From: a virus
Lineage: Duplodnaviria > Heunggongvirae > Uroviricota > Caudoviricetes
IMG/VR virus record: IMGVR_UViG_2778261375_000003
Length of the DNA stretch: 64,000 nucleotides
Reading direction: 5' to 3' (one strand)
Shown here: piece after piece, positions 50,862 to 55,463 of the stretch
Numbering within the stretch: the first letter of the stretch is position 1
How the letters are laid out: every line of letters begins with the position of its first letter
Notes under the pieces: model-generated
Told to the model about the DNA's origin: nothing
The model's input: the letters and a program-made list of their open reading frames with translations, nothing else
The model's database searches: none
Made by a program: the position numbers and the translations under genes

Positions 50862-50878
50862 ATTGCTCTAATTAATTT
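50862..50878 (+). promoter_or_regulatory. C1 operator upstream of ssb
   Basis: ATTGCTCTAATTAATTT. Confidence 0.7.
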
Positions 50879-50897: not shown

Positions 50898-51386
50898 GTG
50901 GCACAACGCGGTGTAAACAAAGTCATCCTGATTGGTACCCTGGGGCAAGACCCGGAGATCAGGTATATACCAAATGGCGGAGCGGTCGGAAGACTCAGCA
51001 TCGCAACGAATGAATCATGGCGCGACAAGCAAACGGGCCAACAGAAAGAGCAAACAGAATGGCATAAAGTCGTTTTGTTCGGAAAACTTGCTGAAATTGC
51101 GAGTGAGTATTTACGAAAAGGTTCTCAGGTCTACATCGAAGGGAAACTTAAAACCCGTAAGTGGACAGATGACGCCGGTGTAGAACGTTACACGACGGAA
51201 ATTATCGTCAGCCAGGGCGGCACCATGCAAATGATCGGCGCTCGCCGCGACGATTCACAATTCTCAAATGGCTGGGGGCAGTCAAACCAACCTCAAAACC
51301 ACCAGCAATACAGCGGTGGCAGTAAACCTCAGAGCAACGCCAATAGCGAACCTCCAATGGACTTTGAAGACGATATTCCATTTTGA
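50898..51386 (+). CDS. ssb: single-stranded DNA-binding protein
   Basis: 162 aa; OB-fold N-terminus [19 protein letters not shown], Gly/Gln-rich linker and acidic tail DFEDDIPF. Confidence 0.95.
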
Positions 51387-51522
51387 GAGGGCTGAAAGTT
51401 GCTCGATTACTTAAAAATAACTTTACCTAATTGGTGTAAAAAAATGGGCGCAACAAAGCGCCCCAACAATAGAGTTTCAAATTAATAAAAAGGTAATAAA
51501 TAACATGAAGTTAAATTGAGAA

Positions 51523-51602
51523 GAGGCAATTTTATTGCCTCTTCAAAGGTGGCATGAGGGTGCCACCTATATGCGGGCAGTGACATCACTCCCTTCCCGC
51601 AT
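51523..51602. terminator. convergent terminator hairpins between ssb and the porin gene
   Basis: gaggcaat-tttatt-gcctc, ggtggca-tgagg-gtgccacc, and atgcggg...cccgcat inverted repeats. Confidence 0.5.
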
Positions 51603-51619
51603 ATTCTTACCTACCAAAA

Positions 51620-52732
51620 TTAGAATTGGTAGGTCATACCAACAGCAACGATGTTGTCGGTTGCAACCTCAGATCTTTTGGTAAATTCACTTTCATCAAT
51701 CAGGTTGATCTTGTAGTCAACGAAAGCGGACATATTTTTGTTGAAGTAATAAGTCGCACCCAAGTCGATGTATTCAACCAGATCCTGGCTGCCGAACGCA
51801 CCAATATTTTCACCGCGAGAGTGCAGATAAGCGATGGACGGACGCAGGCCGAAATCAAACTGGTATTGAGCAACAGCTTCAAAGTTTTTCGCCTTGTTCG
51901 CGATAAAGTCATCACCGAAGACAGTCATATTCTGAGTTTCAGAATAAGTTGCAGCCAGGTAAATGTTATTTGCGTCATATTTCAGGCCAGTAGCCCATAC
52001 TTCAGCAGTTTTACCAGAAGCATTCAGAGGATCCTTTTTAGCATAGGATACCTGCCCATCAGTACGATCAGATTTTGCATAGGTTGCACCAACGCCAAAT
52101 CCTTCATAATCGTAAGTAGCAGACAGACCAAAGCCATCACCATTAGATTCAACTACGTCACGGCCTTTCCAGTTGTTCACTTTTGCAGCACTATCATTTT
52201 TACCTTGATACTGCAAAGCAAAGTTCAGACCATCAACCAGGCCGAAGAAATCATTGTTACGGTAGGTGGCTACGCCAGTAGCACGCTGGGTCATAAATAC
52301 ATCGGTCTGAGTCCAGGTATCTCCACCAAACTCAGGCAGCACGTCAGTCCAAGCGCCAATATCATAAGCTACACCATAGTTGCGACCATAGTCGATTGAA
52401 CCATAATCAGCAAAACGGAGGCCAGCAAATGCAAGACGAGTTTTATCTTTATCAGAGCCCTCAGATTCAGTACGGTTACCTTTAAATTCGTACTCCCACT
52501 GACCAAAACCGGTTAACTGGTCATTAATCTGAGTTTCACCTTTGAATCCCAGACGAGCATAAGTCTTATCTCCGTCATCACTAGCTGAAGAAGAGAAGTA
52601 ATGTTCTGCGTTAACTTTGCCGTACAGATCCAGTTTATTACCGTCTTTGTTGTAGATTTCAGCTGCTTGCGCAGACATTGCCATCAGGACAGATGCTGCA
52701 ACCGCAGAGAGTGCCACTGTGATTTTTTTCAT
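51620..52732 (-). CDS. general outer-membrane porin (NmpC/Lc/OmpC family)
   Basis: 370 aa; signal peptide [39 protein letters not shown] and C-terminal ...VAVGMTYQF, classical enterobacterial porin signature. Confidence 0.9.
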
Positions 52733-52844
52733 TTTTTTTGCCCTTTAGATTGAACTTTTCAGTAGAAAAGAAGTCACTGCGGACAAATGTTTATCTTTTT
52801 TGGATTCGTGTTTCAAGTTTTGCAAATAAAAATCAAGGTATTTT

Positions 52845-52860
52845 TGTGATCAAAATCACA
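52845..52860. promoter_or_regulatory. CRP-type binding-site palindrome upstream of the porin gene
   Basis: TGTGA-TCAAAA-TCACA, perfect match to TGTGA-N6-TCACA, about 120 bp upstream of the porin start within an AT-rich island. Confidence 0.55.
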
Positions 52861-53473
52861 AATAATAGCCTTGAAAACCCAATGGACTATTAGAAAAAAC
52901 TCAATTCACAGAATAAAAATTGACAAAATAGATCAAAAAACAATCAAAAATAAGCACAAAAGACAAACAATTAAATTATCACAAAAATAATAACTGTCAA
53001 AAATAGATAGCCTGTTAATTAACAGGGCTTTAATGGATGTAGACTTGAAATCTACTTAAAAATTAGAATCAAATTAATTACTGCCGATTGGGTATTAAAT
53101 TGAATCTATATTGTGAGAGTTAAAGACGATGTGTTTTAGTTATAAATGTTATTCCCTAAAATGGAGCGGTCTCATCGAATCCTGATTAATAACGAGCTAA
53201 GCTAATTCATTTTAGTATGTGTATATCTTTACCCTCTGAATATGCAATAAAGAAGAGATATTAAACAATATGTAGCTTCAGGATTGACTCTGGAAGAATT
53301 AAAAGATCGACTAAAGTGTTCAATATGTGGTGAGCGAAACGCAAAAATTAATTTTTTTTGATCTAACATATTAGGTAACGGCTTGCTTCCATAACCTAAA
53401 GCAAGCCACTACGCGTTTACTTTAAGTACACAATTAACATATCAGAACAGATTATTTTTGCACAATCAGGGAG

Positions 53474-53785
53474 TTAATATACGATCTGGTCTACATGATC
53501 ACCAAAATCATCATCGTCGTCGTCATCATCGCCACCATCTACTGCTGGCCAATCAACAAACCAGCCAGCGTAAAGATGCAGCGTTCGGAGAACATCACTT
53601 GCGGGAGCATCAAGGGTGTTAACGAATCCCATATAGCTATTGGGATTTGCCCCAGCTATGGCTTCAGCGATCATGTCCTCGGTAATGTCACCGGAGATAA
53701 TGCTTAAACGCCCGGAAACTTCTTCATTATCATCAAATTCGATAATGGCATCTCCGCCTAATGGCGCTGCGATTTTAATCTGCAT
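53474..53785 (-). CDS. small highly acidic protein with poly-Asp tract (103 aa)
   Basis: C-terminal GGDDDDDDDDFGDH run; last gene of the leftward dar operon. Confidence 0.5.
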   Translation of the reverse strand: MQIKIAAPLGGDAIIEFDDNEEVSGRLSIISGDITEDMIAEAIAGANPNSYMGFVNTLDAPASDVLRTLHLYAGWFVDWPAVDGGDDDDDDDDFGDHVDQIVY

Positions 53786-55463
53786 TATTTAGATCCTTTG
53801 CCACACCTAATAACAGTTCCAGCAATCCGTCACCATTCATCAGTGATGCGGCAGCGGCCTCTTTGTCATGATACAACTGAAGAGCCATAGAGAATACTTC
53901 CGTTGCTGACGTTTTGGAAATAGTCGGTGATTTCTGCCGAATTTTCCCGGTGTTACTTACTGAGGCTGGCGGGTATACCTTCGCCATATAAATATTACTC
54001 AATCGAGATCTGAAGCACCATTCAGGCTTGCCACGCCCACCGATATTAACGAAAGATGGCTTATCCCCTTCAACATTGGCCTTCAGGAATGACCGGGCTT
54101 TCTCTAACAAACCAGGGTTACTGTACTCAAGATGATGACCCAGCTCGTGCCACAGTGCACTTGCATTTTCATCGTTCAAATTGACAGCAACAACACCATT
54201 AAGATTTGCATATGCCCTTCCCTGGTGGTGAACCACCTTTGATAAGGTCGAAATTTTACCGCCGGTCAGGCGATAAATATCAGCAAGTTCCTTGCGCAGG
54301 TCTATCCCACCATTCTGTCCAGCGCGGGCTTCTTCCACTTCTTCCGTGATAAAAGAGTCGGCCCACTCAAGAGCTTTTTCTTCAGATACGGATGAGTTTG
54401 CGATCGCACTGTTCATGGCAGATAACACTTTCTCGTGGACCGAACCCATTCTTCGCTGATTCATTTGCCAGCGTGTCTGCGGGTTATATGAGAATCGCTT
54501 AAGTAGTTGGTCAAGCTGCTCAAGTTCTTCTTCACTGACATACCTTTTAGCCTCACCAATAATGCCAGGGAGAATATTGCCGTTAGGATTAAACGCTCGC
54601 GAAAGGAAGAGTTTCAGCGCCCCCATGCCCTCCGATGCTTCAATATCACCAATAACCCGGTTAACAATGGCCGCACTCTTCGGATTAGCATCCGCCAACG
54701 CTCTGGCTACAATTTGCAGGGACGATACGACCTCACGCTGCATATCAGTCCTGATCTCATCAATAAACTCTGGCGTTATGCCGTGCTCTTTAAGGATATC
54801 CCTGCCTTCCGCCGTTACCCCATCGATATCACCGACATGTTTATTAACCCGACTTTGCAATGCCTTAAATGCCTTCAGAATTCCACGGGCATCATCCGCT
54901 TTAATAACGGCCTTCCTGAATGCTGGCAAGAAGTCTGAGTTAACCTCATTTTGTTGATCGGCCCACTGAATGGAGGCTTCTTTCATCTCGTCCAGAGTCA
55001 GATCACCCAACGCGGTATGGTCTGTGAATATGAGCGACAACCTCTGAACCATTTCTGCCAATGGTGATGCCGAATGCGCCGCGCTAAGGAATGCTTTCAC
55101 CCTGGTTGGGCGAATGGAAAACCAGTCAATAGCTGGTGGCATATCTCCGTTTTTTATCGCCTGCGCTATCTCGTCAAAGCCATCGCGCCCAAGGGAGGAT
55201 GCGTGATTTAACAAGCCGCGAAGTAACGAATTGCTGATACCGAATAATCGGCACCATTTATTCACGTCGGCAACAGGCATTCGAACAAAATGCGCAAGCA
55301 CTTGTACAAGCTGTTCATCCTGGGGATCTGTTCGGGAAAGCAGCCTGATCAGATGAATAATGTCTTTGATGCCGGATGCCCGATGTAATAGCAAGCTGGT
55401 ATATGGCGCAACACCGTTGTATCCGCTGCTGGTGGCCATAACTATCTGATCGTTTAAACTCAT
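53775..55463 (-). CDS. hypothetical protein (562 aa) in the darA operon (DdrB position)
   Basis: ORF overlapping its neighbours in a co-directional operon downstream of darA. Confidence 0.55.
   Translation of the reverse strand: MSLNDQIVMATSSGYNGVAPYTSLLLHRASGIKDIIHLIRLLSRTDPQDEQLVQVLAHFVRMPVADVNKWCRLFGISNSLLRGLLNHASSLGRDGFDEIAQAIKNGDMPPAIDWFSIRPTRVKAFLSAAHSASPLAEMVQRLSLIFTDHTALGDLTLDEMKEASIQWADQQNEVNSDFLPAFRKAVIKADDARGILKAFKALQSRVNKHVGDIDGVTAEGRDILKEHGITPEFIDEIRTDMQREVVSSLQIVARALADANPKSAAIVNRVIGDIEASEGMGALKLFLSRAFNPNGNILPGIIGEAKRYVSEEELEQLDQLLKRFSYNPQTRWQMNQRRMGSVHEKVLSAMNSAIANSSVSEEKALEWADSFITEEVEEARAGQNGGIDLRKELADIYRLTGGKISTLSKVVHHQGRAYANLNGVVAVNLNDENASALWHELGHHLEYSNPGLLEKARSFLKANVEGDKPSFVNIGGRGKPEWCFRSRLSNIYMAKVYPPASVSNTGKIRQKSPTISKTSATEVFSMALQLYHDKEAAAASLMNGDGLLELLLGVAKDLNNAD

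Follow-up and report, generated by a model that had tools for sequence, protein, structure and literature searches.

Porin genes comparable to the one analysed here are described from: (i) the lambdoid elements PA-2 (lc) and DLP12 (nmpC), whose Lc and NmpC genes carry the 3' untranslated region (3'UTR) ipeX, repressing host OmpC and OmpF (PMC12197685) in a manner that, according to a review, is not base pairing (PMC3617542), (ii) the P1-like phage P7, whose GenBank record (AF503408 / NC_050152) has annotated the gene as nmpC, 'NmpC precursor', since 2002, and (iii) chromosomes of the ompD type, exemplified by Salmonella ompD, the transcription of which is activated by CRP according to a passage of PMC5137417 that cites Santiviago 2003, and which has a 5'UTR of 69 nt (PMC3333887). 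The ssb-hxr interval of P1-like elements is designated RD-2, one of five variation hot-spots, in an article that also mentions nmpC as the gene for the porin precursor of P7 (PMC6906374, by Venturini et al. 2019).

The window (the whole stretch of 64,000 nt that was analysed) carries a further member of this group. The locus is likely, with good confidence, to be a CRP-activated and self-contained accessory cassette (a 'moron') of the NmpC/Lc/OmpD lineage, the same as P7 nmpC, that swaps porins as in PA-2. The cassette is already known in kind and, as a discovery, matters little: the gene is annotated in P7, its location is published, and the CRP and IpeX biology of the family is in the literature. 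New here are the homology and positional conservation of the CRP-type site, the finding that the AT-rich tract is composite, the lack of C1 control and the diverged ipeX in P1-like elements.

A porin cassette at the ssb-hxr junction

The original prediction of a cargo porin between ssb and the dar operon, at the site of IS1 in P1, is borne out, as P1 carries isaA-IS1-isaB between ssb and hxr where the window has the porin. Alignments to P1 and P7 break off right behind the ssb stop codon, with foreign DNA from 51387, and resume within isaB near 53254. The locus has these features:

50898..51386, plus strand: ssb, the left flank (open reading frame, profile match and P7 annotation)
51387..53252, minus strand: porin cassette, non-P1 DNA in place of P1 isaA-IS1 and most of isaB (P1/P7 alignments)
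51620..52732, minus strand: porin coding sequence (CDS), P7-type NmpC, 370 aa (open reading frame list, profile match and PDB chain alignment)
52664-52732, minus strand: porin signal peptide of 23 aa, with cleavage between SAQA and AEIYNK
52921..53252, minus strand: distal AT-rich upstream DNA, peculiar to this cassette (sequence search)
53254..53361, plus strand: isaB remnant, the last 35 codons and stop, P1 backbone (P1 alignment and comparison to pHNCF11W)
53375..53412, no strand assigned: hxr/isaB intergenic hairpin, common to P1 and thus backbone, not cassette (P1 alignment)
53474..53785, minus strand: hxr (odaA in P7), the right flank and last gene of the dar operon (open reading frame and phage annotations)

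The DNA upstream of the porin gene had been taken for an AT-rich, non-coding island of some 730 bp. It is indeed AT-rich, with a GC content of 26-33% over 52650-53400 compared to about 47-55% in the flanks, but it is not a single non-coding unit. The tract is a composite of 741 bp in which only 52733-53252 (520 bp) belongs to the cassette, followed by the end of isaB and, at 53362-53473, by the hxr/isaB intergenic region of P1 with its hairpin. This isaB end is the sole real coding remnant; the small open reading frames of the AT-rich DNA, including one of 39 aa that is annotated in JL22, are unsupported. The distal part of the cassette (52921..53252) includes the hairpin CCTGTTAATTAACAGG at 53011-53026, with a T run after it on the minus strand, and a sequence search found no match to this part outside porin-carrying P1-like elements. 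The same distal DNA occurs in Escherichia fergusonii pHNCF11W, where it adjoins a near-full isaB, which in turn adjoins hxr. Because pHNCF11W retains this near-full isaB, the cassette must first have replaced isaA-IS1, with most of isaB lost later in the window/P7 type.

The porin gene is full-length and encodes a signal peptide, as originally predicted. Its intact product matches the NCBIfam 'porin OmpC' model NF007841 over residues 8-370 of 370 with 530.4 bits (curated cut-off 484 bits), and mature OmpC/OmpK36 PDB chains align end to end with residues 24-370. The protein has a cleavable Sec signal peptide (of 23 aa also in the P7 record of NmpC), a mature start of AEIYNK and a C-terminus of TYQF. 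Thus, the full-length profile match, the Sec signal, the AE(I/V)YNKDGNK-type start and the C-terminal Phe of general bacterial porins (OmpC/OmpF/PhoE) are all found. Judged from these family features, the transcript product is a general porin, predicted to form a trimeric outer-membrane channel.

The amino acid identity is 96% to P7 NmpC and 75% to OmpD of S. arizonae, whereas for the majority of other enterobacterial porin loci it is about 59-62%. In the comparison that had been proposed with lambdoid and chromosomal porins, the nearest are Lc/NmpC (80-84%), followed by OmpD (72-75%). By sequence relationship the porin is a member of the NmpC/Lc/OmpD lineage of mobile-element porins. No donor genus emerges for the P7-type allele, as identity is at most 82% in the species-representative genomes, the best of which are Escherichia. 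The differences between the CDS of the window and that of P7 are concentrated in two short stretches. The porin protein is under purifying selection as measured by dN/dS: for seven of the eight homologues compared, namely P7, the IncK2/Z copy, three other copies of the P7 type, PA-2 and ev099, the ratio is 0.06-0.13. The pseudogene status that had been named as a possible refutation does not apply to this intact and constrained copy, although it does apply to some others: the porin is interrupted by IS10 in pSvP1 (PMC6906374) and reduced to a truncated open reading frame in another copy (L089). Since such broken copies exist, the gene is dispensable.

The cassette is widespread. Phages JL22 and phi456 match the 2.1-kb region at 51400-53500 with 100% identity, and P7 with 95%. 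Of the plasmids in PLSDB, 131 have a match to the region, which in 99 covers at least 80% of the query, and 483 carry hxr; about 100-130 of the 483 hxr-bearing plasmids carry the porin cassette. Many hosts of the matching plasmids are multidrug-resistant livestock isolates. Among complete E. coli genomes, the 3'UTR element is present in 152 of 5426, with 100 copies on plasmids and 52 on chromosomes.

Promoter and CRP-type site

Alignment of the DNA upstream of the porin start codon suggests the following arrangement:

52733..52780, minus strand: putative 5'UTR of 48 nt with a conserved AAAGTTCAA block and an AAGG Shine-Dalgarno (conserved alignment columns; the length hangs on the predicted start of transcription)
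52788..52816, minus strand: putative core promoter, with -35 TTGAAA (52811-52816), a 17-bp spacer and a weak -10 TAAACA (52788-52793) (alignment)
52845..52860, no strand assigned: CRP-type site TGTGATTTTGATCACA (as read on the porin strand), 10/10 core, centred 120.5 nt upstream of the ATG (motif scan and PA-2 lc alignment)

The exact CRP consensus match that had been reported upstream of the porin is confirmed. The palindrome TGTGATCAAAATCACA at 52845-52860 is the sole match to TGTGA-N6-TCACA in the 64-kb window, even when one mismatch is allowed, and its match extends to TGTGAT....ATCACA. In the record of PA-2 lc (J02580), the exact alignment partner of this palindrome is annotated as a CRP site (ATAGAGATCTACTTCACAAAT, positions 1363-1383). 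A second, distal CRP site, comparable to the one annotated at -425 in PA-2, is absent within one mismatch from the whole window.

The palindrome could instead be a chance match in AT-rich DNA or the site of another factor, with the porin expressed constitutively or silenced by H-NS. The upstream DNA is very AT-rich, it has no detected canonical core promoter, and the single match at up to one mismatch does not exceed the 1.9 expected per window. By contrast, an exact match is expected only 0.05 times per window (and is present in 5 of 100 shuffles), and this one aligns with an annotated site. Its position is likewise preserved. Twelve mobile copies were examined (the window, P7, two other P1-like variants, one copy on a 454-kb plasmid, two chromosomal copies flanked by IS elements, one copy on an IncK2/Z plasmid, and those of PA-2, 434, ev099 and E. 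albertii), and in each the centre is placed 36.5 bp upstream of an invariant TTGAAA, even though the divergent copies retain only 55-74% identity to the window in the 200 bp that precede the ATG. The perfect core occurs in three lineages with different spacers, the P7 type, L093 (the copy on the IncK2/Z plasmid) and L094 (an Lc-type copy on a chromosome), in the variants TGTGA-TTTTGA-TCACA, TGTGA-TCTCGA-TCACA and TGTGA-CCTTGA-TCACA; the half-sites are kept while the spacer varies in L091, L093 and L094. Because the half-sites and the distance to TTGAAA are kept while spacer and flanks vary, the element looks like the footprint of a bound site. Together with the CRP activation of the related ompD (PMC5137417), these observations make a chance palindrome very unlikely. 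On the strength of the alignments, the CRP-type site is inherited.

The chromosomal relatives carry a variant of the same arrangement. Among the six with a located start codon, five (three Enterobacter species, S. arizonae and Citrobacter werkmanii) show a site that scores 7-8/10, has an unaltered TCACA half and lies 45.5 bp upstream of TTGAA[AC]. The sixth, Klebsiella spallanzanii, is without either element. The approximately 190 bp proximal to the ATG are 78-83% identical to the upstream regions of E. coli chromosomal porin genes, the regions upstream of lambdoid lc and nmpC align in the same promoter layout, and CTTGAAA is unchanged in ten of ten aligned promoters. Transferred by alignment from Salmonella ompD, the start of transcription would lie near G52780, which fits TTGAAA-17-TAAACA. 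From this start, the CRP-type site would be centred at about -72.5 and its Salmonella counterpart at about -81.5, both of which would be class I positions (near -61.5, -71.5, -82.5 or -92.5). A promoter scan found no consensus-like sigma-70 promoter on the porin strand, where the -10 element is poor, and such a weak core promoter fits dependence on an activator.

Other forms of control were considered. Silencing of the porin by H-NS is plausible, given the low GC content (26-33%) of the upstream DNA. The window has 14 C1 operators (ATTGCTCTAATAAATTT) compared to 0.3 expected, but none falls within 51387-53473, the nearest being at 50862-50878, upstream of ssb. Control of the porin by P1 immunity was thus rejected and, as the cassette is without a C1 operator, the porin should be expressed in lysogens, unsilenced by prophage immunity. 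A P1 late promoter was also rejected: the left half of the palindrome resembles the -22 box of LPlyz, but by eye no -10 element stands at the right spacing.

The structured 3'UTR and ompC

The porin stop codon is followed by a folded region with these predicted elements:

51438..51619, minus strand: structured 3'UTR, ipeX counterpart, from the porin stop codon to the terminator, 182 nt (folding and lambdoid comparison)
51569-51604, minus strand: hairpin 1 (folding)
51547-51568, minus strand: hairpin 2 (folding)
51520-51544, minus strand: hairpin 3 (folding)
51464-51519, minus strand: single-stranded stretch, 56 nt (folding)
51446-51463, minus strand: intrinsic terminator GGGCGC...GCGCCC, with its U run (U7) at 51438-51444 (folding)

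The region had been described as convergent hairpins that terminate the porin gene. This holds for the porin strand, which has three stem-loops and one intrinsic terminator; a canonical terminator for ssb is not among them. The fold has a minimum free energy of -66.9 kcal/mol (z = -6.0), and the same layout of three hairpins, open stretch and terminator follows PA-2 lc and the nmpC genes of DLP12, 434, ev099 and E. albertii. With a 3'UTR only 58% identical to ipeX, the homology is distant. Base pairing is preserved by compensatory changes in hairpin 2 and the terminator (three pairs among five P7-type sequences, a count reached in 10 of 500 shuffles), and further AU/GC and UA/AU swaps separate the P7-type from the Lc-type 3'UTRs. 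By this shared architecture, the hairpin region is a diverged counterpart of ipeX.

Rfam provides no ipeX-type match even for 3'UTRs that are identical to that of DLP12 (PA-2 and 434), hence there is no family model to score. A relationship to the sRNA GcvB was weighed, since the full model of RF00022 matches all seven scanned P7-type 3'UTRs (the window, P7, L007 and L089-L092) at 26.8-30.5 bits and one stretch resembles region R2 of GcvB. However, the best of these scores is below the curated cut-off of 42 bits, just 14 nt remain of the G/U-rich region R1, a direct alignment to K-12 GcvB does not convince and the homologous lambdoid 3'UTRs give no match. That the element is a phage-borne relative of GcvB is thus extremely improbable, and this identity was rejected in favour of homology to ipeX, which explains the element.

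The 3'UTR is, on the comparisons at hand, an element that travels with the porin. In five of six comparisons among copies with P7-type flanks, the 3'UTR is better conserved (92-100% identity) than the CDS (75-94%); the exception is pHNCF11W, with 92.9% in the 3'UTR and 98.7% in the CDS. The hairpin region of the IncK2/Z copy is about 90% identical (by manual count) while the dS of its CDS is 1.1. In one chromosome, an IS-flanked copy joins an Lc-type CDS (97% amino acid identity to Lc) to a 3'UTR of the P7 type and a CRP promoter with a perfect core. The zero divergence between the 3'UTRs of the window and P7 was set aside as proof of selection; the adjoining end of ssb is identical too, so recombination better explains this identity.

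The open stretch was compared to K-12 ompC from -60 to +40, with 200 shuffles and 2500 random enterobacterial segments as controls. For the open stretch of the window, the predicted duplex with ompC has -25.1 kcal/mol, a value that 5 of the 200 shuffles and 0.2% of the 2500 segments also reach; its core consists of 11 bp that span the AUG (AAUAACAUGAA) and a further 6 bp, and the best complementarity is at -6..+13 of ompC. The open stretch of DLP12 IpeX reaches -26.7 kcal/mol in pairing with -32..-2, matched by none of the 200 shuffles and none of the 2500 segments. As calculated from predicted duplexes, the open stretch of the 3'UTR is complementary to the start region of ompC.

The best complementary stretch lies at another part of ompC in the window than in DLP12 IpeX; this, the low identity to ipeX and the review's view that IpeX acts otherwise than by base pairing (PMC3617542) count against the porin-swap reading.

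A different account would have the porin serve mainly in nutrient uptake by the host under carbon limitation, or replace OmpC/OmpF lost from resistant strains, instead of excluding phages, with the 3' hairpins as mere terminators or stabilisers or as a relic of a lambdoid late leader next to Q. CRP control fits scavenging, many hosts are multidrug-resistant livestock isolates, and the receptor of P1 is lipopolysaccharide (LPS), not a porin. In lambdoid phages, moreover, the 188 bp from the Q gene to the porin stop codon are taken up by this block, at the place expected for a late leader; a search of the opposite strand of this lambdoid block for a sigma-70 late promoter found none. An inert 3'UTR, by contrast, is at odds with the compensatory changes, with the greater conservation of the 3'UTR than of the CDS in most P7-type comparisons, with the retention of the hairpins in the IncK2/Z copy and with an open stretch specifically complementary to the ompC start, while activity of IpeX is published for the DLP12/PA-2 version. 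This account is rather unlikely as a whole, and the porin-swap cassette is preferred.

Proposed mechanism and comparison to known systems

In the mechanism proposed for the porin-swap cassette, the weak sigma-70 promoter TTGAAA-17-TAAACA would be activated by cAMP-CRP bound at about -72 (class I). The cassette would be transcribed in the lysogenic plasmid state under glucose scarcity, independently of C1, and the transcript would encode a general porin and end in the long structured 3'UTR, the counterpart of ipeX. Expression would add the phage-plasmid porin to the outer membrane and lower host OmpC, and probably OmpF, in a porin swap as described for PA-2 lysogens. In this scheme, the start of transcription, the dependence on CRP, any phenotype and the 3'UTR's processing and activity are inferred.

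Lysogenic conversion or superinfection exclusion had been predicted as the function. Conversion has a precedent in ipeX of PA-2/DLP12 (PMC12197685), the counterpart of which is present here, whereas P1 itself would probably not be excluded.

For adsorption P1 uses the LPS core rather than a porin, so that exclusion, if any, would be directed at other phages, and at colicins, that depend on OmpC or OmpF. The benefit could alternatively be nutrient uptake or altered permeability. A bolder extension is tentative and somewhat doubtful: the open stretch of ipeX may have shifted to pair across the ompC start codon, P1-like phage-plasmids may swap the major porins of their hosts under CRP control, and the conserved flanks, promoter and 3'UTR, may act as recombination handles for exchanging different porin CDSs.

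If true, the display of phage receptors and the permeability to antibiotics would be changed in about 2-3% of sequenced E. coli. Many P1-like phage-plasmids carry resistance genes and, if the porin swap works as in PA-2, widespread phage-plasmids that spread CTX-M and mcr would alter permeability and receptors according to carbon supply. The practical value is one of annotation, as records of P1-like plasmids read 'porin OmpC' and nothing more, with no label on the promoter, CRP site or ipeX-like 3'UTR.

The systems that compare most closely are P7 nmpC, JL22/phi456 and about 100 P1-like plasmids (annotated 'ompD' or 'ompC'), which have the same gene, ssb-hxr site and flanks at 95-100% DNA identity over 2.1 kb. 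Nothing substantive differs from these records, in which only the CDS is annotated and the CRP site and 3'UTR element are unmarked. The window element has a ddrB deletion that is absent from the phage records.

Similarly to the window cassette, PA-2 lc and DLP12 nmpC with ipeX are stand-alone cassettes of temperate phages, with 80-84% amino acid identity, a homologous promoter, a CRP site 36.5 bp upstream of TTGAAA and a three-hairpin 3'UTR. They differ in location, being lambdoid and between Q and the lysis genes, whereas the window is a P1-like plasmid prophage with the cassette between ssb and hxr. The CRP core is 10/10 in the window compared to 8/10 in PA-2; the 3'UTRs share just 58% identity, and the best complementarity to ompC is at -6..+13 in the window instead of the -32..-2 of DLP12.

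The chromosomal OmpD genes of Salmonella, Citrobacter and Enterobacter (72-75% amino acid identity) share the TTGAA[AC] -35 element and the CRP-like site in five of six relatives. These genes have the site another 9 bp upstream (at about -81.5), a longer 5'UTR of 69 nt, and a short 3'UTR that contains one terminator but lacks an ipeX-like element. The cassette is also like micF-ompC and micC-ompN, in that a porin gene has, physically linked to it, an RNA able to pair with the mRNA start of a competing porin; unlike micF and micC, which are divergent genes, the RNA here is the porin mRNA's own 3'UTR.

Copies of the porin cassette on chromosomes and plasmids

Copies of the cassette carried between ssb and hxr in the window occur in chromosomal and plasmid settings. 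The copy in the E. coli 19SZHZ663Rt chromosome (L094:4700-6200) has IS elements on its flanks and includes: (i) a porin of 97% identity to the Lc porin of lambdoid phage PA-2, (ii) a P7-type 3'UTR of 92% identity to that of the window, and (iii) a promoter of ~78% identity with a perfect CRP core. L094 is a mosaic, with a coding region recombined with regulatory flanks. A second chromosomal copy, from strain SCEC020001 (L007), has a TnpB pseudogene on one side and, abutting its 3'UTR, an IS3 element on the other. A related cassette is found on the conjugative-type IncK2/Z plasmid of E. coli 64A:C (L093:2480-4540), with a porin of 79% identity, a related 3'UTR and a CRP palindrome that is perfect and extended (TATGTGATCTCGATCACATA). 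This cassette also adjoins an ssb gene, but runs in the same direction as ssb.

The window retains only the end of isaB beside the cassette:

53254-53361, plus strand, isaB remnant (last 35 codons)

By contrast, a near-full isaB adjoins the same cassette in E. fergusonii plasmid pHNCF11W (L090:1457-1993), which suggests a history of two steps.

The structured 3'UTR has a sub-threshold match to Rfam GcvB (window 51438-51624, minus strand; 30.5 bits, cut-off 42) that recurs in each of the seven copies scanned whose 3'UTR is P7-type. GcvB identity is rejected, and the match is taken as a chance resemblance of the ipeX-like 3'UTR.

Porin coding sequence and possible RybB pairing

While dN/dS is ~0.1 in all other porin comparisons, the window and pHNCF11W coding sequences give 1.7 (dN 0.014, dS 0.008), a ratio based on small counts that could reflect a loop swap or diversifying change. 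Early in the porin coding region, the motif CAGUGGC is invariant (codons 2-6; window 52736-52717, minus strand). The RybB 5' end begins GCCACUG, and the porin motif is complementary to it. Reported RybB targets include the nmpC and ompD mRNAs (PMC3333887). The cassette may also be linked to the sigma-E response.

The P1-like element and its relatives

The P1 C1 operator consensus, at up to 3 mismatches, is matched 14 times across the whole window (0.29 expected), which confirms that a P1-type immunity network extends over the window. The ddrB gene is shortened:

53775-55463, minus strand, ddrB (562 aa in the window; 995 aa at full length)

The deletion is internal and in-frame, removing ~433 codons (P1 DdrB residues ~13-447). 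Of the matching phage records, all 19 have alignments that stop at the deletion point, which fits the annotation of ddrB at full length in P1, P7 and JL22. Thus, the element of the window differs from phages JL22 and phi456, though its porin cassette is identical to theirs.
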